In this document: positions 415 through 61,701 of the stretch, one piece after another
Layout of the letters: each line of letters starts with the position of its first letter
Numbering within the stretch: the stretch's first letter is position 1
NCBI GenBank assembly: GCA_963775425.1
Contig: CAVZJB010000001.1
Span: 1-64,000, forward strand
DNA length: 64,000 nucleotides
Direction of reading: 5' to 3'
From: an uncultured delta proteobacterium
Lineage (GTDB): Bacteria; Myxococcota; UBA727; VGSZ01
Made by a program: the position numbers and the translations under genes
Notes under the pieces: model-generated
What the model saw: only the letters and a program-made list of their open reading frames with translations
Told to the model about the DNA's origin: nothing
Databases searched by the model: none

Positions 415-1266
415 CTACGACGAGGCCGCCGCGCCCGCGACGGCGGCGGCCATGGCGAGGGCATGGCCGCCGAAGGACACGATCCACGGCATCGTCGAGC
501 GCGTCCCCGCGACGGCGTTGGCGCCCACGGCGATGAGCACGCACGACCACAGCTCGAAAAAGTCGAGGCCGTGCAGCGCCGCGCCGGTGACGGAGTGCGC
601 CGTCTGTATGCCGAGCCAGGCGGCAGGGTTCGACAGCACCGGGTTCTGCGCGTCGATCGTCGACACGTCCTTCACGAGGTAGGTCAGCGCCGCGAGCACG
701 TCGTGCACCGCCGACGGCGCCATGGCCAACGCCACCGCACCGACGACGGGCGCGAGCTTCAATTCCGGTCGCGTCCCACGCAGAAGCCCGAAGCACAGCG
801 CCGCCGCCAGGATGATCCACGCGCCGCGCTTCACCACCGCGCCCACCGGGAGCGCCACCTTCATCGCCTTCGCGCCCATCGAGATGATCTCCGCGCGCTT
901 GTCGGCGGGCACCTGGTCCATCTTGCCGGACCGCTTCATCTCGCGCTCGACGACGGCGGCGACGTCGCCGCGCGCGAGGTACGTGAGCGGCGGCAGCAGC
1001 GAAAACGCGAGCATCACCCCGAGCATCAACGCCGCCATGGGCTTTCGCGCAACGCTCTGAAACGCGGCCCGCGGCTTCAAGAACACGAGGAGGCGCGGCG
1101 CCGGCGCCGGCTGCCCCGTGCGGCGCAGCGTCCCCGACGCGAGCGCGCTCTGCGGCGGGCTCGCGGGCGGCGCGGCCGACGACGGGCTCGCAGGGCTCGC
1201 CGGCGCGGCCGGTTGCGTCGTGGGGGTCTGTGCAGGGGCCGGGGGTTCCGCGGGGTCGGTCGGCAT
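415..1266 (-). CDS. YIP1-family integral membrane protein
   Basis: ATG at 1266 (MPTDPAEPP...). Pro/Ala-rich N-terminus, FLKPRAAFQSVARKP motif, several hydrophobic helices, LDFFELW near the C-terminus. Confidence 0.7.
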   Translation of the reverse strand: MPTDPAEPPAPAQTPTTQPAAPASPASPSSAAPPASPPQSALASGTLRRTGQPAPAPRLLVFLKPRAAFQSVARKPMAALMLGVMLAFSLLPPLTYLARGDVAAVVEREMKRSGKMDQVPADKRAEIISMGAKAMKVALPVGAVVKRGAWIILAAALCFGLLRGTRPELKLAPVVGAVALAMAPSAVHDVLAALTYLVKDVSTIDAQNPVLSNPAAWLGIQTAHSVTGAALHGLDFFELWSCVLIAVGANAVAGTRSTMPWIVSFGGHALAMAAAVAGAAASS

Positions 1267-1276
1267 GCCCGCGGTG

Positions 1277-1879
1277 CTACAACCGCCCGAGCAGCGCGTC
1301 GAGGCGCTCCTTGGCCCGCTGCACCTGCAGATCTGCGGCGCCGGCCACGCGCGGCTCCACGACGTGGCGGGCGTCGTCCTCGGGCGCGGTGGCCTCCACC
1401 GGCGCGCGCGCCGTCGCCTTGGGCGCCGGGGGCGCGGGCCGGGCGGCAGGCTTGGACGGCGGATCCACGCGCGGCACGTCGCGGTCGAGGACGCGGTCGA
1501 CCATCTTGTGCCAGACGTCGACGACGGTGACCTCGCCGAGCTTGACGTTGCCCACCAGCGACGCGGCGACGTCGACGACGAGCACGGCGAAGAAGCCGAT
1601 GCACACCATGGCGCCCGCCAGCAGCACGAGCTTGGCGGCGCGCTTGAGCGCCCCCGCCGCCGGAGCGCCGCGCCCCTTGCCGGCCGAAGCGCGGCCTCCC
1701 GAGGCGCGGCCTCCCGAACAAGCGCGGCCGCTCGAAGCACGCCCGCCCTTGCCGCCGCCTCGCGACGAGCGCGCGGCCTTGTCGCGCGCGTCGTCGCGCG
1801 ACAGCGACCTGGGCTTTGGCCTCCGCCGCGCAGCGACGAGCGCCGCGCCCCCGGAGTCTGCGTGTCCCGCACGGGCCAT
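1277..1879 (-). CDS. Hypothetical single-pass membrane protein with a basic Gly/Arg-rich N-terminus
   Basis: Ends 10 nt before the YIP1 gene start. One TM segment (LVLLAGAMVCIGFFAVLVV) and a helical C-terminus. Start uncertain. Confidence 0.55.
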   Translation of the reverse strand: MARAGHADSGGAALVAARRRPKPRSLSRDDARDKAARSSRGGGKGGRASSGRACSGGRASGGRASAGKGRGAPAAGALKRAAKLVLLAGAMVCIGFFAVLVVDVAASLVGNVKLGEVTVVDVWHKMVDRVLDRDVPRVDPPSKPAARPAPPAPKATARAPVEATAPEDDARHVVEPRVAGAADLQVQRAKERLDALLGRL

Positions 1880-1936
1880 ACCCGAGACGCTAGGGGACGC
1901 GTGGCGACCTCTCCAGTTTTCGGCCATGCTCGGGGC

Positions 1937-2290
1937 GTGAGCGTGCTCGATCGCTTCTCGCAGGTGGTGAAGTCGGAGTGGAGCCACCGCTTCGGCAAGA
2001 AGAACGGCGAGGCCCCCGCCCCCGCGCGCGACGGCGGCGGCGGCCCCGGCCGCGCCACCGCCCCCCACCGTCCCGCTGTCGTCGACGTCGACGGCGCCCT
2101 GCGGGTCCTCGAGCTGTCGGGCACGCCCACGCTCGCCGAAGTGCGCGCGCGCTACCAGGAGCTCTCCCGCCGCTACTACCCCAAGACGCGGAGCGCCCGC
2201 GACGACGAGGCGCACGCCGCCCGGGTCGTCGTCGGCGCGCTCACCGACGCGCTCGAGCTGCTCGAAGAGCACCTCCTGCCGCTCGCATGA
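1937..2290 (+). CDS. Small J-domain-like protein lacking the HPD motif
   Basis: ALRVLELSGTPTLAEVRARYQELSRRYYPK matches the J-domain helix I-II pattern. Stop overlaps the next ATG (ATGA). Confidence 0.6.
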   Translation: MSVLDRFSQVVKSEWSHRFGKKNGEAPAPARDGGGGPGRATAPHRPAVVDVDGALRVLELSGTPTLAEVRARYQELSRRYYPKTRSARDDEAHAARVVVGALTDALELLEEHLLPLA

Positions 2291-3447
2291 TCTTCCTCGT
2301 CGCCGCCCTCGCCCTCTGCGGCGAGCCCCCGCCGCTCGGTCCCGCGCCGCTCGCGACCGCCGGCGCCGCGAGCACCAGCGACCCCGACGACGCGAGCGCC
2401 GGTGCGACGACGAGCGACGAGGGCGAGACCCACGTCGACGGCACCGCCGCCGCCTGGCTCGAGCTCGACACCAACGCCAAGCGCCTGCCCTCCGGCGCCA
2501 TCGGCGGCGACGACGGCCACCTCGAGCCCCCGCTCGGGCCGCCCGCCGAAGAGCCGTCGCCCGACGGCCTCGTGCGCGCCGAGGGCGCGGTGTCGGCGTC
2601 GGTCAAGCGCGGCTCGGTGCTCGTGCGCTCCGACGACGCCCTCGGCTTCAAGGGCTTCTTCACGCAGTCGAGCGAGGACATGCTCGTGGTGCAGTCGCGG
2701 GACACGGTGTCGGCGCCCGTCTGGTCCGACGCCGTGCTCTCGCTCTCGCTCTTCGGCAAGGGGCGCGCGCAGCTCTCGGGCGTGCGCACCTACGGCGTCG
2801 TCGACGGCGCCGCGCTCGTGCAAAAGCCCCTGCTCCGCTGGCTCTCCGTGCGCGCCGGCGTCGACGGCCAGGCGTTTCACTCGTTCGACGTGCCGCTGTT
2901 TTCGTCGGCGGGCGGCGGCGTGCTCGCCGGCGCGGAGGCGCGCGCGGGGCCGGAGAGCCTCGATCTCCTCGTCGACGCGGGCGGCCGCGGCTTTCCGTTC
3001 GCCTCCAAGAACCTCGAAGACCCCGGGGATCCCGAGCGGCGCACCGACGGTGTCGTCGTCGCCACGCTCCAGGCCACGAGCGCCCGCCGGCTCTTTTTGT
3101 CCGCGGGCTACACGCTGTGGCGCAACGCGAGCAACGCGCGCGGCGAGAGCTTCTTGCGCCACCGGCTCTCGGCGGTGGTGGGCTTTCGCCTGCCCGCGCA
3201 GCTCACGTGCACCGCGCAGGGCACGCTGCAGATCACGCAGTACGACGACGGCGTCTCCGTCGGCCAGATCTACTTCCTCGGCGACGACGAGGAGAGCCAG
3301 AACATCCTCGAGGTCACGCTCTCGCGCCCGCTCATCGGCCCGCTCTCCGCCGTCGCCCGCGTGGCGTTCACCGGCAACGAGCTGGCGGTCGAGGGCGCGC
3401 GCTTCTCGCGCGAGACCGCCGCCCTCGGCCTCCAGGCGACGTACTGA
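2287..3447 (+). CDS. Putative outer-membrane beta-barrel protein
   Basis: Signal peptide MIFLVAALALC, alternating amphipathic beta-strands, C-terminal aromatic beta-signal (LGLQATY). Confidence 0.65.
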   Translation: MIFLVAALALCGEPPPLGPAPLATAGAASTSDPDDASAGATTSDEGETHVDGTAAAWLELDTNAKRLPSGAIGGDDGHLEPPLGPPAEEPSPDGLVRAEGAVSASVKRGSVLVRSDDALGFKGFFTQSSEDMLVVQSRDTVSAPVWSDAVLSLSLFGKGRAQLSGVRTYGVVDGAALVQKPLLRWLSVRAGVDGQAFHSFDVPLFSSAGGGVLAGAEARAGPESLDLLVDAGGRGFPFASKNLEDPGDPERRTDGVVVATLQATSARRLFLSAGYTLWRNASNARGESFLRHRLSAVVGFRLPAQLTCTAQGTLQITQYDDGVSVGQIYFLGDDEESQNILEVTLSRPLIGPLSAVARVAFTGNELAVEGARFSRETAALGLQATY

Positions 3448-9771: not shown

Positions 9772-9946
9772 GCGCCGCGCCTCCCGCCCTGTCCCCGCTC
9801 CGATCAAATGCATCGGCGATCCGACGGGGCTTCGAAAAGGGGCTGTCCCAAACTTTTCTGGATTTTTTGTCGGGCTGTGACATACGGTTCGCCCACCCGG
9901 CCGGAGTGGCCTGGGTTCGACCGTTATTCAATGGCCACTTGGCCCG

Positions 9947-9953
9947 TAAGGAG
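9947..9953 (+). promoter_or_regulatory. Strong Shine-Dalgarno site for the 39-aa microprotein
   Basis: TAAGGAG, 8 nt upstream of ATG 9962. Preceded by an AT-richer divergent intergenic tract (~9830-9935). Confidence 0.75.
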
Positions 9954-9961
9954 ACCCTGCA

Positions 9962-10081
9962 ATGAAGAAGATTGTGGTGCAGATCGTCGCCGTCCTTTCG
10001 CTCGCCGCCGTGCTCGGTGGCGTCGCGCTGACCCAGGCTGCCTGCGAAGGCGAGGGTGAGGGCGAAGGCGAGGGCGAGTGA
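9962..10081 (+). CDS. 39-aa secreted or lipoprotein microprotein: signal peptide plus C-(EG)5-E
   Basis: Translated by hand as MKKIVVQIVAVLSLAAVLGGVALTQAACEGEGEGEGEGE*. Strong RBS and downstream hairpins. Below the ORF-track length cut-off. Confidence 0.8.
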   Translation: MKKIVVQIVAVLSLAAVLGGVALTQAACEGEGEGEGEGE

Positions 10082-10088
10082 TCGCGCT

Positions 10089-10140
10089 CTTCACGTTGTC
10101 GTGAAGCGAAGAGGCGGGCCGACGGTCCGCCTCTTTCGTT
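10089..10140 (+). terminator. Tandem hairpins after the microprotein (terminator or 3' stabiliser)
   Basis: CTTCACG-TTGT-CGTGAAG (10089-10106) and AAGAGGCGGGCC-GAC-GGTCCGCCTCTT (10109-10135), followed by TCGTT. Confidence 0.65.
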
Positions 10141-10151
10141 GCGCCGTGCGC

Positions 10152-10433
10152 ATGACCCGCCTCGTCGTCCTCGCCCTCGCAGCCGTTGCCGTGGGCGGCG
10201 CCTGTGCGCCGCCGCAAAGCGACGGCTGCAAGCAGTACATCGCCTGCCAACAAGAGTACGACGCGGCCTCCGGGACGGGCCCCGTCGACGTCAGCCAATA
10301 TGAGGCCGACGGCGCCTGTTGGGACAGCGCCGACAACGCCGCCACCTGCGATCAGCAGTGCACGGAGGGCATCGCCGCCGTCCGCGACGCCGCCGCCAAT
10401 GCCAACCTCGACGTGCCGTCGTGCCAGGGGTAG
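10152..10433 (+). CDS. Small Cys-rich lipoprotein (CW family, short type)
   Basis: Signal ...AVGGAC; CKQYIAC...YEADGACW-x8-C-x3-C. Confidence 0.8.
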   Translation: MTRLVVLALAAVAVGGACAPPQSDGCKQYIACQQEYDAASGTGPVDVSQYEADGACWDSADNAATCDQQCTEGIAAVRDAAANANLDVPSCQG

Positions 10434-10446
10434 TCTCCTCGCCGCC

Positions 10447-10821
10447 ATGAAATTCCTCCGCGCGCCCCTCCTCGTCATCGGGCTCCTGTCCGCCCTCGCC
10501 GGCTGCTCGGCCATCGAGCGCGACCCCGCGTGCGTGCTCGCCGAAAAGTGCGACAACGCGCTCGAGGAGCCCTCCGGGGACTTCGTCGCGAACGACCCCG
10601 TCTTCGGCGACGACCTCAACGCCGACGGCACCGCCGGCCAGTTCGGCGACGTCGGCACCTGCTGGCAGAACGCGGACACGGCCAAGCCGTGCATCCAGGC
10701 CTGCAAGGACTTCGTGAAGGAGCAGGCCGCCATCGCCCAGGGCGACGGCGACCAGGCCGTCGTCGACGCCTGCGGCGGGGCCGCCGCCGGCGAGGGTGAG
10801 GGCGAAGGCGAGGGCGAGTAG
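10447..10821 (+). CDS. Cys-rich lipoprotein (CW family, long type) with C-terminal (GE)5 tail
   Basis: Lipobox LAGC; CVLAEKC...FGDVGTCW-x8-C-x3-C; ends AAAGEGEGEGEGE. Confidence 0.85.
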   Translation: MKFLRAPLLVIGLLSALAGCSAIERDPACVLAEKCDNALEEPSGDFVANDPVFGDDLNADGTAGQFGDVGTCWQNADTAKPCIQACKDFVKEQAAIAQGDGDQAVVDACGGAAAGEGEGEGEGE

Positions 10822-53075: not shown

Positions 53076-55202
53076 CTACTTCCGTTTCGCCATCAACCCA
53101 AAAGCCCGGTTCAGCTTCTGGTTGGCGGTCTCGTATTGGCCGGCGGCGAAGCCCGCGGCGGCGTCGCGTGCGAGGGGCTCGACCTTGTCGGCGATGTCGG
53201 GGCGCCGCGCGCGGTCGTAGACCTTGTTGAAGCGGTTGATCTTGGTGAGGACGAAGGCGCGATCGACCTTTTGCGCATCGACGGCCGCGCGCGCGCTCTG
53301 CACGAGGCGCTCGGCTTCGCCGCGCTTGCCGCGCGCGTTCAGGATGTGCGCGCGCTCGAGCTGCCGCGCGGCCTGTGGCATATCGAACGTGAGGATGCCC
53401 TTGCTCCTCATGGCGGCGCGCACCCGGCCGACGCCCTGCTCCACCCGCGGGTCCGCGTGCGGCCGGTGCGTCCCGTTTGGCGGCGGCGTCTCCACGGGCT
53501 GCGGCGTGTTGTCGAAGTTGAAGCCGCTGGCGTCGCCCTCGCCCTCGCCCTCGCCCTCGCCCTCGCCCTCGGCCGCGGCGCCGGCGTCGACGACGGCGGC
53601 CGGGTGATCGTCCTCGTGGTGATCGCCGGGCGCGACCTCGCCCTCGCCGCCGGTGTGCGCGGGGTCCGCGGCGGCGTGGTCGACGTCGGGGACGTCCGTC
53701 GCGACGCCGGACACGCCCGCGTCCGCGCCGCCGCCGCCGCCGCCGATGGCGACGCCGGCGACGATGACGATGACGGCGACCACGGCGGCGCCCGCGGCGA
53801 TGAGCCGCTTGTCGAAGCCCTTGCTGATGGCGGCGCGCTCGTCGCGCTCGAGGTCGAACTTGGCGATGCGCACCGTGGGCTCGAGCGGCCGCAGCGGCTC
53901 GTCGGGCACCGCCGGCGCCTCGACGGTGTCGCCCGGCTCCGCGTCCGCCTCCGCCGAGCGGTCGGTGGGGATGGAGGCGGGCCTCGTCGACGCGTCCGTC
54001 TTCTGCTCGGCCAACGGATCGGGCGCGGCCGCTCCCTCGGGGTGCTGATCGACGACGGCGCCGGTGACGAGCGGCAGCTCCCCGGAGGGCCCGTCGCCCA
54101 CGTGGGTGCCGAGCGACAGATCCGGCATGCGCGCGTCGACGACGGTCTGGCCTGCCTGGCCCTGGTTCGTCACCGTGATGGGCGGGTCGGGCAGCGCGCT
54201 GTTGTCACCCGGCGGCAGGGGCGTCTCGTGGGTGTGGTCGGCGGGCGACGACGACGACGGTGACGACGGCGACGGCGCGGCCTTTCCGTCCGAGGCGGCA
54301 TCGCGGATGACGCCCGACGGCGCCCAGCGGGCGAAGTCGCCGGTGGCGCCCCGGGTCGGCGGCTGGGCGCTGCTCTCGAACAGGCGCTCCACCTCGCCGA
54401 GCGCCTCCTCGAAGGCCTGGGCGGAGGCGAAGCGCGCCTCGGGGTCCTTCTCCATCGAGCGAGCGACGACGTCGGCGAGGCGCGCGGGCACGTCGGGCTG
54501 GATGATGTCGATCCGCTGCGGGGGCTGGCTGCGGATCATCTCGAGCATCTCGATGGCGCCCGCGGCGGCGTTGTAGGGCAGCTTGCCTGCGAGCGTGACG
54601 TAGGCCACGACGCCGAGCGAGTAGATGTCCGTGCGCACCGACGGCGACACGCCCGTGAAGATCTCCGGCGCGATGAAGCGCATGGAGCCGACGGCGGTGC
54701 CCGGCCGCGTCACCCGCGAGACGTCCTGCGCGGTGGCGGTGCCGAAGTCGAGGATCATCGGGTCGTCGCCGGCGCGCACGATGATGTTCGCCGGCTTGAG
54801 GTCGCGGTGGATGACGCCGGCGGCGTGCGCCGCGGCGAGCGCCGGACACACGCCGCGCAGGATGCGCGTGGCGCGCAAGGGGTCGAGGCGCCCCTCGTTC
54901 TTCAAGATCTTGAGGAGGGTCTGGCCCTCGACGTAGTCCATCGTGATGAAGAAGGCGTCGCCCTCCTCATGCAGATCGAAGAGGCGACACACGCCCGGGT
55001 GCGCGATGCGCCGCGCGAGCAAGAGCTCGCGCTTGAAGCGGTCGCGCACGGCGGTGTCCTGCGTCAGCCACGGGTGGAGGATCTTCACCGCCACCTGCGC
55101 GTCGAGCGCGGTGTCGGTCGCGATCCACACGACCCCGTGGCTGCCCTGCCCGATCTCTCGATCGAGCTGGAACCTGCCGAGCTTGTCTCCCACCTGCCAC
55201 AT
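53076..55202 (-). CDS. Membrane Ser/Thr protein kinase with an (EG)6 tract in the extracytoplasmic part
   Basis: IGQGSHG, VAVK, IHRDLKPAN, DFG, APE; one TM; AAEGEGEGEGEGEGD. Confidence 0.92.
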   Translation of the reverse strand: MWQVGDKLGRFQLDREIGQGSHGVVWIATDTALDAQVAVKILHPWLTQDTAVRDRFKRELLLARRIAHPGVCRLFDLHEEGDAFFITMDYVEGQTLLKILKNEGRLDPLRATRILRGVCPALAAAHAAGVIHRDLKPANIIVRAGDDPMILDFGTATAQDVSRVTRPGTAVGSMRFIAPEIFTGVSPSVRTDIYSLGVVAYVTLAGKLPYNAAAGAIEMLEMIRSQPPQRIDIIQPDVPARLADVVARSMEKDPEARFASAQAFEEALGEVERLFESSAQPPTRGATGDFARWAPSGVIRDAASDGKAAPSPSSPSSSSPADHTHETPLPPGDNSALPDPPITVTNQGQAGQTVVDARMPDLSLGTHVGDGPSGELPLVTGAVVDQHPEGAAAPDPLAEQKTDASTRPASIPTDRSAEADAEPGDTVEAPAVPDEPLRPLEPTVRIAKFDLERDERAAISKGFDKRLIAAGAAVVAVIVIVAGVAIGGGGGGADAGVSGVATDVPDVDHAAADPAHTGGEGEVAPGDHHEDDHPAAVVDAGAAAEGEGEGEGEGEGDASGFNFDNTPQPVETPPPNGTHRPHADPRVEQGVGRVRAAMRSKGILTFDMPQAARQLERAHILNARGKRGEAERLVQSARAAVDAQKVDRAFVLTKINRFNKVYDRARRPDIADKVEPLARDAAAGFAAGQYETANQKLNRAFGLMAKRK

Positions 55203-55324: not shown

Positions 55325-56175
55325 ATGCGCGCCTTCGTCGTCGCCCTGAGCCTGTGTGCCGTCTCCCTCGTCGCTGCCTGCGCCCTGATTTCCGGCGGAT
55401 ACGCATGCGACGGGTCGGAGAACTGCCCCGCCGCAGACACGTGCGTCGCCGGCGTCTGCCAGGCCGGCGAAGGAGAAGGCGAAGGAGAAGAAGGCGAAGG
55501 CGAGGGCGAAGGCGAAGGAGAAGGAGAGGGCGAAGGAGAAGGCGAGGGCGAAGGAGAGGGCGAGGGCGAGGGCGAAGGCGAAGGAGAAGGAGAAGGAGAG
55601 GGCGAGGGCGAGGGCGAAGGAGAAGGAGAGGGTGAAGGCGAGGGTGAGGGTGAGGGAGAAGGAGAGGGCGAAGGAGAAGGCGACGGCTGCATCCTCGTCG
55701 CCGGCGACGTCAACGCGACCAACAACGGCGGCCGGCCCAACTTCCCCGGCAGCACCGAGTGCATCGACCTCATCGGCAGCGTCACGCTGTCGGGCAACCT
55801 GAACGACCTCGGCGACCAGCTCCCGCGGCTGCACAACGTCAACGGCTCGTTCACCGTCAACAGCCCCAACCTCGGCAGCGCCGCCTTCGACGCGCTCACG
55901 CAGCTCGACACCATCGACGGCGACGTCACCATCGAGAACTTCGGGGCCGGCTACGGCGCGGTCTCGCTCGGCACCGTCCGACTCATCACCGGCGACCTCA
56001 GCGTCGTGGACAACACGCAGGCCACGGCGATCGCCCTGCCCGCGCTCACCAACGTCGCCGGCAGCACCACGGTCACGGGCAACACCGCGCTGTGCACGAG
56101 CGTGATCGACGCGTTCTTCTCCCGGGTGAGCTCCACCGGCGGGGAGACGCAGAGCGGCAACAAGGAAGGCTGCTG

Positions 56176-56176: not shown

Positions 56177-56925
<749 letters not shown>

Positions 56926-59388: not shown

Positions 59389-61701
59389 ATGGTCCGATCC
59401 CGATCCGGCGTGTCCTCCCCGGGGGAACCCACGCGCGCCGAGCGCGGCCCTGCGCCCCGCGTGGCGTCGGCGTCGTCGTCCGCGTCGGGGACGGGGCGCG
59501 GGCGCGGGCGCGCGAGCGCGAGCGGCAGCGGGGGCGCGGGCGCCTCCCTGCTCGCCGACGACGAGATCGAGGAGGAGACCCTCAGCGCCGACGATCACCG
59601 CCGGCCGGCGACGGAGCCGCTGCCGGCGAGCGAGCGGCCCTTCGGCCGCTACCACCTGCTCCGCCGGCTCGCTTACGGCGGCATGGGCGAGATCTTCCTC
59701 GCGCGCCAGGGCGGCGTGGGCTCGCTCGCCACCGTCGAGAAGCTCGTCGTCATCAAGCGGATCCTCGGGCACATGAAGCGGGACGAGAAGCACCGCCGCA
59801 TGTTCCTCGACGAGGCGCGGCTCCAGGCGCTCCTGAACAACCCCCACATCGTGCAGATCCACGACATGGGGGAGGAGAACGGCCACGTCTACCTCGCCAT
59901 GGAGCACGTGCACGGCCCCTCGTGGCGTGCGCTCATCGATCGCTGCCGCAAGAACCGCGAGCACATCCCGCTCGCGCATGTCTGCGCGATGATGGCGCAG
60001 GCGGCGCGCGGGCTCTCCTACGCGCACAACCTCGTCGACGTCACGGGCTCGCCGCTGCGCATCGTCCACCGGGACATCAACCCGCACAACATCCTCGTCA
60101 CCTACGACGGCGAGGTGAAGCTCATCGACTTCGGCATCGCCAAGAGCGAGCTCGCGGACGGCAACACCGAGACGGGCACCATCAAGGGCAAGTTCTCGTA
60201 CATGTCCCCGGAGCAGAGCGCGGCGCTGCCCCTCGACGCGCGCAGCGACATCTTCACCCTCGGCATCTGTCTGTACGAGCTCATCACGCTCGAAAACCCG
60301 TTCCGCAAGGGCAACGTCGTGCTCTCGCTCGAGGCCATCCAGCGCGAGACGCCGGCGCCCCTCGCAAAGAAGCGCAAGGACGCGGCGGTGCTGCAGTCCG
60401 TCGTCGACCGTTGCCTCGCCAAGGACCGCGAGGATCGCTTCGACGACGCCGGCGAGGTCGCCGTCGCCCTCGAGGCCCTGCTGCACGACGGCGTGATCCC
60501 GCCGGCGGCGCAGTCGCTCGGCGCCTGGCTGCGCGAGCGCTTCACCGACGCCATCGCCGAGCACCTGCACATCCTCGAGCAGACCGGCTCCACCGGCGCC
60601 CTCGTCACCCGCGGCTCCGATGCGTCCTTGCCCCGGCGGCGCCCGTCGCTGCCGTCGGACGGCCGGGTCGGGCCCAACGACCCCACCGCGGCGCGCCTCG
60701 ACCTGCCGTCGCCCGCCGAGCTCACCGTCGCCGCGCCCGAGCCCCTTGAGGCCGCGCCCGTGGAGCTGACGTCGCAGACCCCCGCGGAGTCCTACGACGT
60801 CTCCTCGATGTCGGTGGTGGCGCAAAAGCCGCGCTCCCGCGTGCCCATCGTCGCCGCCGCCGCGTTCCTCATCGTCGTGCTCGGGCTCGGCGTCGGCGTC
60901 GCCGTCGCGTTCGCCGTGGAGCCCGAGGCCGCCGGCGCCCTGCTCGCCGCCGCCGTCGACTCCGTGGACCGGAGCGCGCCGCCGCCGATCCCCGCGCTGC
61001 CGACCGCGCTGCCGACCCCGGGCCAGCCCCCGGAGCTGACCACCGCGCCCGCGGACCCGGGCAAGGACCCGCCCGCCACGGGCGGCGCCGACCCCGCCGG
61101 CACCCCCGACACGGGCAGCCCAGACACGGGCAGCCCAGACACGGGCAGCCCAGACACGGGCAGCCCAGACACGGGCAGCCCCGACACGGGCGCCGCCGAC
61201 ACGGGCAGCCCCGACACGGGCGCCCCCGACACGGGCAGCCCCGACACGGGCGACACGGGCGCGACGGGCGATCCCGGCGGCGAGGCCCGCGACGACGTCG
61301 TCGCCAAGCCGCGGCACCACGTGCGCCACGCCGAGGCGTCATCGACGCGGCACAAGCACGTGGAGCCCGACAAGAAGCCGCCGGCGAAGCCCGTGGTGGC
61401 CTCGGTGTCGGTGACGTCCGAGGGCTACGCCGTGCGGGGCGGGCGGAAGATCTACGAGGGCGAGGCCACCACGCTGTCCATCAACCACGACGACGGGGCG
61501 CCCTTCACCGTGCGCTTCAAGGTGCGGGCGGACTCCTTCGACGTCGACAGCGAGCCCTGGGCCATCGTGCGCGTGAACGGCCTCGGCAAGGGGCGCACGC
61601 CCCAGCGCGGCCTCCCGCTCGGCACCCGGCGCGCCCAGATCGAGCTCGTGAATCCCGCCGGCGGCAAGATGACGGTATCGTTGAAGCTCACGCCCAAGTA
61701 G
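59389..61701 (+). CDS. Membrane Ser/Thr protein kinase with PEGA-like C-terminus
   Basis: LAYGGMGEIF, VIKR, VHRDINPHN, DFG, GKFSYMSPEQ; TM; DSEPWAIVRVNG. Start uncertain. Confidence 0.92.
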   Translation: MVRSRSGVSSPGEPTRAERGPAPRVASASSSASGTGRGRGRASASGSGGAGASLLADDEIEEETLSADDHRRPATEPLPASERPFGRYHLLRRLAYGGMGEIFLARQGGVGSLATVEKLVVIKRILGHMKRDEKHRRMFLDEARLQALLNNPHIVQIHDMGEENGHVYLAMEHVHGPSWRALIDRCRKNREHIPLAHVCAMMAQAARGLSYAHNLVDVTGSPLRIVHRDINPHNILVTYDGEVKLIDFGIAKSELADGNTETGTIKGKFSYMSPEQSAALPLDARSDIFTLGICLYELITLENPFRKGNVVLSLEAIQRETPAPLAKKRKDAAVLQSVVDRCLAKDREDRFDDAGEVAVALEALLHDGVIPPAAQSLGAWLRERFTDAIAEHLHILEQTGSTGALVTRGSDASLPRRRPSLPSDGRVGPNDPTAARLDLPSPAELTVAAPEPLEAAPVELTSQTPAESYDVSSMSVVAQKPRSRVPIVAAAAFLIVVLGLGVGVAVAFAVEPEAAGALLAAAVDSVDRSAPPPIPALPTALPTPGQPPELTTAPADPGKDPPATGGADPAGTPDTGSPDTGSPDTGSPDTGSPDTGSPDTGAADTGSPDTGAPDTGSPDTGDTGATGDPGGEARDDVVAKPRHHVRHAEASSTRHKHVEPDKKPPAKPVVASVSVTSEGYAVRGGRKIYEGEATTLSINHDDGAPFTVRFKVRADSFDVDSEPWAIVRVNGLGKGRTPQRGLPLGTRRAQIELVNPAGGKMTVSLKLTPK
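61108..61260 (+). repeat. Coding 15-bp tandem repeat (DTGSP)n
   Basis: GACACGGGCAGCCC(A/C), about nine units with variants. Confidence 0.85.

Follow-up and report, generated by a model that had tools for sequence, protein, structure and literature searches.

Several small lipoproteins of the bacterial envelope have been described. Lpp forms a coiled coil and is linked to peptidoglycan via its C-terminal Lys. The entericidins, EcnA and EcnB, are made as precursors of about 40–50 residues that contain a lipobox and give rise to a short, amphipathic mature peptide. The precursors of the enterococcal sex pheromones are ordinary full-size lipoproteins of Gram-positive bacteria, with a conserved hydrophobic stretch of 7–8 residues where the signal peptide ends, and they belong with an Eep-type protease and a cognate receptor. 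There, the lipoprotein signal peptide becomes the product after processing by LspA and Eep (PMC4173765). In another source, mature Lpp has 58 residues, and HP0135 of Helicobacter pylori, which is made as a 44-residue precursor and has a mature form of 28 residues, is described as a protein whose loss affects outer-membrane stability (PMC11768039). El Rayes et al. [quoted passage not shown]

The locus compared here with these systems lies in a stretch of 64 kb, the window, which is the beginning of contig C1 in an assembly of 8.26 Mb (18 contigs, G+C 71.9%). A micro-ORF extends from 9962 to 10081 on the forward strand (39 codons, with an ATG at 9962 and a TGA at the end); its translation is MKKIVVQIVAVLSLAAVLGGVALTQAACEGEGEGEGEGE, that is, MKKIVVQIVAVLSLAAVLGGVALTQAAC followed by (EG)5E and the stop. 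The layout given by the first-pass annotation, with a taaggag ribosome-binding site, this ATG, the ORF, and two hairpins on its 3' side, agrees with both the sequence and RNAfold (Table 1). The same annotation called the gene unannotated; it is indeed missing from the ORF track that accompanied that first reading, although the gene callers of public assemblies do label its homologs "hypothetical protein". The micro-ORF is a genuine, family-specific gene and is neither a chance reading frame nor the remnant of a deletion. The reading favored here, with a probability of about 0.6, is that this gene is monocistronic and encodes a minimal bacterial lipoprotein.

Table 1. Features of the micro-ORF unit in the window.
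Feature	Position	Strand	Basis
Promoter-like block, CTGG-N16-TGnCATA(C/G)	9858..9885	+	11-genome upstream alignment
5'-UTR hairpin A (cccggcc-ggagt-ggcctggg)	9896..9915	+	RNAalifold
Hairpin B, small GGCC-N4-GGCC just 5' of the Shine-Dalgarno site	9933..9944	+	Sequence inspection
Shine-Dalgarno site taaggag, 8 nt 5' of the ATG	9947..9953	+	Sequence
Leader, 27 aa: MKK n-region, hydrophobic core, LTQAA c-region	9962..10042	+	Translation and alignment
Cys28, predicted lipidation and LspA cleavage site	10043..10045	+	Invariant in 11/11 genomes
Mature tail (EG)5E and TGA stop	10046..10081	+	Translation; TGA in 11/11 genomes
3' hairpin 1 (cttcacg-ttgt-cgtgaag)	10089..10106	+	RNAfold
3' hairpin 2 (10110-10134, then TTCGTT) with T-rich tail, probable intrinsic terminator	10110..10140	+	RNAfold

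The evidence for a gene comes in the first place from its relatives. In a DNA search of 41 related genomes, the match in three genomes of genus g3 stops exactly at the stop codon of the micro-ORF, and the homologs in these genomes are ORFs of 38 aa, such as MKKIAFKFLAALSVFAILGGVALTQTACPTAEGEGEGE. A profile built from four sequences (the window's ORF and the three from g3) had a single strong match in every one of the family's 11 genomes, with best E-values from 1.2e-6 to 6e-27, which makes the gene single-copy. These homologs, distributed over four genera, have 36–40 aa, a Shine-Dalgarno (SD) site upstream, and, in every case, a TGA stop. At the level of the class, 12 of 38 genomes match, namely the 11 family members and one genome with a weak match (E 3.7e-4) within a 625-aa frame. 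For the phylum, 301 genomes were sampled; the 11 that match all belong to the family, and the other 290 have no match.

Searches of public databases gave a similar picture. A word-index search of 5.8 billion proteins found 67 homologs of 35–58 aa, all unnamed or "hypothetical", among which the sole organism label given by a source (NCBI) is Myxococcota. A search for longer forms, in which 8000 candidates were scored, had three matches, each of them an upstream mis-start with the same short tail, and an exhaustive HMM search of 1.84 billion cluster representatives had nine (38–70 aa), with a domain in none. Five loci emerged when 185,579 species genomes were scanned for a pattern; the titles of their assemblies name Deltaproteobacteria, Myxococcota, or Myxococcales. 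The homolog statistics given below are based on the 69 unique public sequences obtained from the word-index and longer-form searches. These searches bear on two of the three observations that the first-pass annotation had named as grounds for abandoning the gene, a lack of homologs in relatives and homologs bearing a domain (which would point to a deletion remnant); homologs are present in 11/11 family genomes, no homolog carries a domain, and the idea that the product has no folded domain is borne out across the homologs from two database searches.

Comparison with curated families was made at several levels. A Pfam scan of all 11 members at E-values up to 10 listed three families, Fungus-induced, LPAM_1, and KxYKxGKxW_sig, none of which exceeded its cut-off and none of which is the entericidin family. 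No NCBIfam model exceeded its cut-off either; among the models for the Phr, PhrK, and NprX pheromone precursors, the best were NF038040 with 14.6 bits (cut-off 35) and TIGR04429 with 12.7 bits (cut-off 25), and both matches span only the signal-like N-terminus. The best scores in the ESM Atlas, 0.87 and 0.86, were to unnamed clusters. A literature search that covered articles apart from their supplementary files found nothing on the micro-ORF family or on bacterial GE-repeat lipoproteins.

The coding nature of the ORF can be judged from the way in which it varies. In the leader, the minimal numbers of changes among the 11 genomes at codon positions 1, 2, and 3 are 27, 11, and 32, respectively, and the median dN/dS, a measure proposed for the leader in the earlier annotation, is 0.39 (55 non-independent pairs). 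The GE codons vary synonymously between genomes (GAA/GAG and GGC/GGT), and the differences in length among the 11 ORFs are in frame throughout. This substitution pattern fits a coding sequence that is presumably under purifying selection.

Upstream of the ORF, the spacing from CTGG to CATA in the promoter-like block is identical (27 nt) in 8/11 genomes, and the three g3 genomes are without the CTGG. The strict form of this pattern occurs at four sites in the whole genome, of which only that of the micro-ORF has an SD-bearing ORF downstream. A consensus scanner with stricter criteria of its own found no promoter-like (sigma-70) and no terminator-like site between 9400 and 11000. A sigma-54 reading of the block, which in some genomes resembles TGGCAT-N5-YYGC, was dropped because the GG is changed to GA or GT in 5/11 genomes. 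The block is described here simply as promoter-like, and the gene may be highly expressed, as the first-pass annotation suggested. Hairpin A comprises seven pairs in the RNAalifold prediction for the 11 genomes, and for six of them at least one sequence has both bases changed in a compensatory manner. Hairpin B was not predicted by RNAalifold on these genomes; its GGCC..GGCC is found in 8/11 aligned upstream regions and is absent or altered in G010, G008, and G005. The GGAG of the SD site is invariant across the 11 aligned upstream regions. On the 3' side, a GC-rich hairpin with a T-rich tail is located 26–89 nt past the stop in 10/11 genomes, the other being G008, where no terminator hairpin was found under a perfect-stem criterion. 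No equivalent of hairpin 1 is evident at the same position in the g3 alignment. From its sequence, the unit looks monocistronic, with a transcript of about 250 nt that its 5' hairpin could stabilize.

Such a transcript raises the question of whether the peptide matters at all, since the unit might act mainly as RNA, either as a small regulator in its own right or as a leader ORF or an attenuator for the genes downstream, with the peptide incidental. The size of the unit, its covarying 5' hairpin, and the terminator hairpins at its end would suit an RNA function, as would the stability of its fold, which in RNAfold (9888–10145, 258 nt) exceeds that of shuffled sequences with a z of -3.2 (0/200 shuffles were equally stable), and the conservation of the upstream non-coding DNA, which is about as high as that of the ORF. 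However, the codon-position counts, the dN/dS, and the in-frame indels described above form a coding pattern; the SD site, the ATG, and the TGA are all kept in 11/11 genomes; and the replacements of one hydrophobic residue by another retain the profile of a signal peptide. Moreover, no Rfam family was matched, the only two matches being at chance level (20.6 and 15.5 bits versus gathering scores of 168 and 100). That the downstream gene differs between genera also speaks against the attenuation of one particular operon. An RNA as the main product is therefore very unlikely.

The neighborhood itself is conserved mainly on one side. In the window's genome, the neighbors encode GrpE, HrcA, Hpt, two small Cys-rich lipoproteins, and a Ser/Thr kinase. 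The hrcA gene is upstream on the opposite strand in G000, G002, G004, G006, G003, G010, and G008, and an Hpt gene lies between hrcA and the micro-ORF in the first four of these; G009 also has Hpt upstream. Downstream, there is a thiG-like gene in g4, and a small Cys-rich lipoprotein together with a PEGA-domain Ser/Thr kinase in g1 and g3. The earlier placing of the gene at the head of a Cys-lipoprotein/kinase cluster is right for two of the four genera but not for g4, with its thiG-like gene, and it is the hrcA neighborhood that is the conserved side. No CIRCE element (HrcA operator) was seen by eye in the intergenic region on the hrcA side. As for a RiPP or lipopeptide precursor, no conserved tailoring gene was found among the neighbors in the window's genome or in g4.

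The leader has the properties of an export signal. In the 11-genome alignment, M1, K2, G19, V21, and A22 are invariant, and an LGGVALT block that sits just before the lipobox is nearly so. The n-region is positive, with K3 and K7 common in addition to the invariant K2, and the core from position 8 to 24 is uncharged. The leader as a whole is nearly constant in length, with 26–27 aa in 67/69 unique homologs. Of the 69 homologs, 55 have an A and 14 a G at position -1; position -3 is occupied by T in 31, S in 18, Q in 15, L in 4, and A in 1, while at position +2 there is a Pro in 61/69 and a Glu only in the window's sequence. The lipobox was judged with a PROSITE PS51257-type pattern, and the choice between SPase II and SPase I likewise relies on motif rules; 52/69 homologs satisfy this pattern, and 15 of the 17 that fail have a Q at -3. 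That Q, which the earlier annotation had correctly reported for the window's genome, is the sole reason why the window's own sequence misses the pattern. The invariance of the Cys and the small residue at -1 in 69/69 are in keeping with the export signal and lipidation Cys proposed at the outset. The processing enzymes are encoded in the genome: Lgt (PF01790) has two strong matches and one weak one, LspA (PF01252) has two, and Lnt (TIGR00546) has one over the cut-off.

The leader may, however, be more than an export signal. An ungapped comparison over the last 18 residues, with a single control family and uncertain start codons, gave a mean pairwise identity of 0.42 for the leader and of 0.17 for the signal peptide of BamD, both in the same 10 genomes. 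In BamD, the mature N-terminus reaches a mean pairwise identity of 0.64 over 30 residues, whereas the signal peptides vary in sequence and in apparent length. BamD is the sole broad control because the 40-kb flanks of G006 and G002, when searched for control lipoproteins, gave only lipo1 orthologs and because a search for BamE (PF04355) was positive in 0/11 genomes. The leader is conserved to a similar degree between G000 and genus g3 in a second micro-lipoprotein family (57–62% over the whole ORF), which has a canonical -24/-12 sigma-54 promoter in front of it. These comparisons are suggestive only of a leader that appears unusually conserved relative to a plain export signal. They also bear on the first-pass annotation's proposal that the GE tract is itself the functional unit, which needs correction in that the tract is not the sole part under constraint. 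Conservation beyond the needs of export is a hint of a possible further product besides the mature peptide.

This hint leads to an alternative in which the leader is the functional product and the tail is minimal cargo. The protein could be an uncleaved, single-pass 39-residue membrane microprotein (N-terminus in and acidic C-terminus out), or else the signal peptide released by LspA could be trimmed to a hydrophobic peptide signal, for which the pheromones that Enterococcus derives from lipoprotein signal peptides offer an established mechanism (PMC4173765). The fixed length of the leader, its invariant residues, its identity relative to the BamD control, and the existence of the second family are all in keeping with this alternative. 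Yet an invariant Cys that follows A or G and precedes Pro is what a lipobox needs, and is not what a plain transmembrane helix needs; the tail is likewise conserved at the amino-acid level and kept short; and the gene is linked to no receptor, transporter, or Eep-type partner. The comparison, moreover, has the single ungapped control and the uncertain starts mentioned above, and selection on translation initiation and on the export of a very short precursor may explain the conservation. A functional leader with the tail as minimal cargo is considered unlikely.

In the favored reading, that of a minimal lipoprotein, it is the tail that remains in the envelope. Across the 69 homologs, the mature length including the Cys is 9–16 aa, with a mode of 12, and the tail residues are G (34%), E (33%), A (11%), P (10%), S (5%), and D (4%), K and R being absent among those listed. 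The last two residues are GE in 57/69, and the side-chain charge of the tail is between -2 and -6 in the homologs. The usual mature form is Cys-Pro-x-(Glu-Gly)n-Glu, which in the relatives becomes Cys-Pro-x(1-4)-(Glu-Gly)2-5-Glu. The tail is kept at the level of the amino acids, with synonymous changes in its codons, but it is not always (EG)n as in the original description, as shown by PAADGSSSDGE in G007, PAAEADAGDGE in G010, and AAATGVSGN in G001, the last of which is non-acidic. The lineage is known only through assemblies from uncultured bacteria. Because all of the genomes are of this kind, repeat lengths could be mis-assembled.

GE tracts are not confined to this gene. In the window, the four-unit GE coding pattern occurs 48 times versus 0 expected (100 shuffles); hence, the tract is non-random, yet it is not unique to the micro-ORF. 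A six-frame translation of the genome contains 300 stop-to-stop ORFs with at least four GE units and 349 with at least three. Under a permissive PROSITE-like rule, 207 of these 349 have a lipobox and a start codon 5' of the first tract; in 75 of the 207, no more than 15 residues separate the Cys from the start of the tract, and Pro is the commonest residue at +2 (63/207). (A permissive lipoprotein heuristic applied genome-wide returned 1917 ORFs and is too noisy for anything beyond a rough comparison at +2.) In 25 ORFs of the genome, the end lies no more than three residues from a GE tract; a common architecture consists of a signal peptide and Cys followed by (GE)n, a Cys-rich domain, (GE)n, and the stop. 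The C-(P-x-x)-(GE)n module is, as far as can be told from these ORFs, a generic lipoprotein tether in the window's genome. Consequently, the peptide would be a "tether-only" lipoprotein rather than a unique invention.

The same tracts characterize the family as a whole. Each of the 11 family genomes has between 422 and 3248 five-unit GE coding windows, and one genome from a neighboring family has 1368; in the other 26 genomes of the class, there are none in 24 and 4 or 5 in the remainder. Within the class, the massive GE expansion is therefore limited to the 11 family genomes and one other genus, and the micro-lipoprotein is limited to the family whose genomes all have GE tracts. No match to the micro-ORF was seen in the remaining GE-rich genome, which is 89% complete. 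No paper was found on this abundance of (Glu-Gly)n in the envelope proteins of the lineage.

The abundance of genes with two tracts prompted the idea that the micro-ORF is the remnant of a larger, decayed lipoprotein, in which an N-terminal (GE)n linker had recombined with a C-terminal (GE)n tail and the domain had thereby been lost. Many genes of the genome do have the signal peptide-Cys-(GE)n-domain-(GE)n-stop arrangement that permits such deletions. There is also a sign of exchange at the locus: the 30-nt GE tail is identical to the tail of a gene 740 nt downstream (10789–10818), and this 30-mer accounts for only 4 of the 2953 five-unit windows genome-wide. An identical 30-mer that is so rare among the GE windows of the genome makes a recent exchange between the two tails likely. 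A decaying remnant is, however, difficult to reconcile with an ORF that is intact, constant in size, single-copy in 11/11 genomes of four genera, and subject to purifying selection, or with two database searches that gave no domain-bearing homolog. The idea was rejected on the basis of the 11/11 conservation and the absence of domain-bearing homologs; it is largely refuted and must be considered extremely improbable.

In the favored reading, the 39-aa precursor would be exported by the Sec system. Cys28 would be diacylglycerylated by Lgt, LspA would then cut before this residue, and Lnt would N-acylate it. The outcome would be a 12-residue lipopeptide, acyl-Cys-(Glu-Gly)5-Glu, with equivalents of 9–16 residues in the relatives. 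Its peptide part would be the disordered acidic module by which many of the genome's larger lipoproteins are attached to the membrane, here without cargo. The lipopeptide might act as a short polyanionic head group on the surface of an envelope membrane, where it could affect charge, cation binding, hydration, or stability. This putative role is the weakest step of the explanation, and no neighboring gene informs it.

How such a product would compare with the systems described above can now be considered. Lpp, which served in the first reading as the model of an abundant envelope lipoprotein, resembles it in that its gene is likewise small and stands by itself, with a strong ribosome-binding site and a terminator of its own, but the tail of the micro-ORF is too short to fold and has no Lys, and no Pfam match was found. 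More generally, a mature part of the Lpp or HP0135 type, folded or in a coiled coil and with a C-terminal Lys, was not found in the homologs, in which 9–16 residues without any listed K or R are present. The best functional analogy is with HP0135, which, according to PMC11768039, is also lineage-restricted and very small and has a disordered C-terminal part that is polar or charged; it differs in its longer mature form and its conserved C-terminal Lys, whereas the micro-ORF product has no basic residue and ends in Glu, and the two sequences are unrelated. The C-P-x-x-(GE)n segment can be seen as the lineage's version of the disordered linkers, except that the known linkers carry a folded domain while the micro-ORF encodes the linker alone. 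The parallel with the enterococcal pheromones is a working analogy only: it concerns the unusually conserved leader, and their precursors, unlike the micro-ORF product, are of full size. Finally, the entericidins share the small lipobox precursor and the short mature peptide and differ in that their mature part is amphipathic and roughly twice as long.

A broader possibility is that the family runs a system of ribosomally encoded anionic micro-lipopeptides. This system would consist of several tiny, separately regulated genes, namely the micro-ORF by hrcA, the second family with its sigma-54 promoter, and the further Cys-Pro-x-(EG)n-stop loci that exist in the relatives. Each might give rise to an acyl-Cys-Pro-x-(Glu-Gly)n lipopeptide plus a conserved hydrophobic fragment of the signal peptide, and these would be envelope-borne or exchangeable signals between cells instead of structural filler. 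As things stand, this is a speculation with a decidedly low chance of being right.

The micro-ORF probably encodes a family-restricted bacterial lipoprotein at an extreme of size, for which no curated family was found. Should it be produced in the predicted form, with 9–16 residues versus the 28 given for HP0135 (PMC11768039), it would be shorter than any other natural bacterial lipoprotein of which a description was found. It would also be the first lipoprotein to consist solely of the disordered tether that normally hangs a domain on the membrane and, as such, would provide a minimal natural substrate for lipoprotein maturation, Lol sorting, and linker function, as well as a natural anionic counterpart to the synthetic triacyl-Cys lipopeptides. 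For the biology of the family, the gene is a marker of a lineage with (Glu-Gly)n tracts in hundreds of its envelope proteins.

The micro-ORF (9962-10081, + strand), which encodes a predicted micro-lipoprotein ending in (EG)5E, lies in a window that also contains genes for small Cys-rich lipoproteins. For the three listed in the table, no Pfam family was found. Orthologs of the 10152 ORF adjoin the kinase gene in genus g3, with 47-48% identity; these same g3 orthologs are matched by the minus-strand ORF near 59636, at 38-39% identity.

The Glu-Gly (GE) tail of the micro-ORF ends in 30 nt (10049-10078) that are identical to 10789-10818, the tail of the lipoprotein gene 10447-10821, situated 740 nt downstream. 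This 30-mer accounts for 4 of the 2953 five-unit GE windows in the genome (G000). Since the downstream gene is missing from all three g3 loci, the shared tail probably goes back to a local duplication or gene conversion of recent date.

Upstream of the micro-ORF, a promoter-like block has a spacing that is invariant in 8 of the 11 family genomes. The sigma-70 rule of the consensus scanner did not select this block in the window, and the GG of the sigma-54 -24 element is not matched by it in 5 of the 11 genomes.

A second micro-lipoprotein family has 37-aa homologs in all three g3 genomes (57-62% identity to the G000 member). The motif TGGCA(T/C)G-N4-CTGCT is found upstream of the gene in all four members (G000 and the three g3 genomes); it matches the sigma-54 -24/-12 consensus, and RpoN is encoded in G000.

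Features of the window and of related loci
Feature	Location	Strand	Remarks
Promoter-like block CTGG-N16-TGnCATA	9858-9885		also at orthologous positions
Small Cys-rich lipoprotein	10152-10433	+
Small Cys-rich lipoprotein	10447-10821	+
GE tract	53538-53567	-
GE tract	55466-55678	+
GE tract	56341-56436	+
Small Cys-rich lipoprotein	near 59636	-
Second-family member	G000:C3:645402-645521 (L056:1503-1622)	+	MQRLIRIVSLLAVISVAAAGLISVAGCPAAEGEGEGEGE, 39 aa
GE-only ORF	G000:C8:151341-151799	-	lipoprotein-type signal peptide
GE-only ORF	G000:C5:293611-294069	+	lipoprotein-type signal peptide
GE-only ORF	G000:C18:218640-218918	+	lipoprotein-type signal peptide
Cys-Pro-x(0-6)-(EG)n-stop	G002:C155:25541-25579	-
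Cys-Pro-x(0-6)-(EG)n-stop	G005:C101:998-1036	-
Cys-Pro-x(0-6)-(EG)n-stop	G005:C134:103795-103836	-

Beyond the signal peptide, the three GE-only ORFs encode nothing but a run of roughly 25-35 GE units up to the stop codon; a Shine-Dalgarno site of the GGAGG or GGAG type precedes two of these ORFs. Cys-Pro-x(0-6)-(EG)n-stop loci additional to both micro-lipoprotein families occur in relatives (G002 and G005), one of these loci lying in a 51-aa open frame; none was found in G017, a GE-rich genome apart from the family.

Across the whole G000 genome, at least three GE units are present in 349 ORFs, most of which are lipoprotein-like; the tract either follows the Cys of the lipobox or lies at the C-terminus, and some ORFs have tracts in both places. 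A literature search found no publication on such a proteome. Counts of five-unit GE windows are 422-3248 per genome throughout the family (all 11 genomes) and zero or low in 26 of the 27 non-family genomes of the class sample; the (Glu-Gly)n proteome is a lineage-wide feature.
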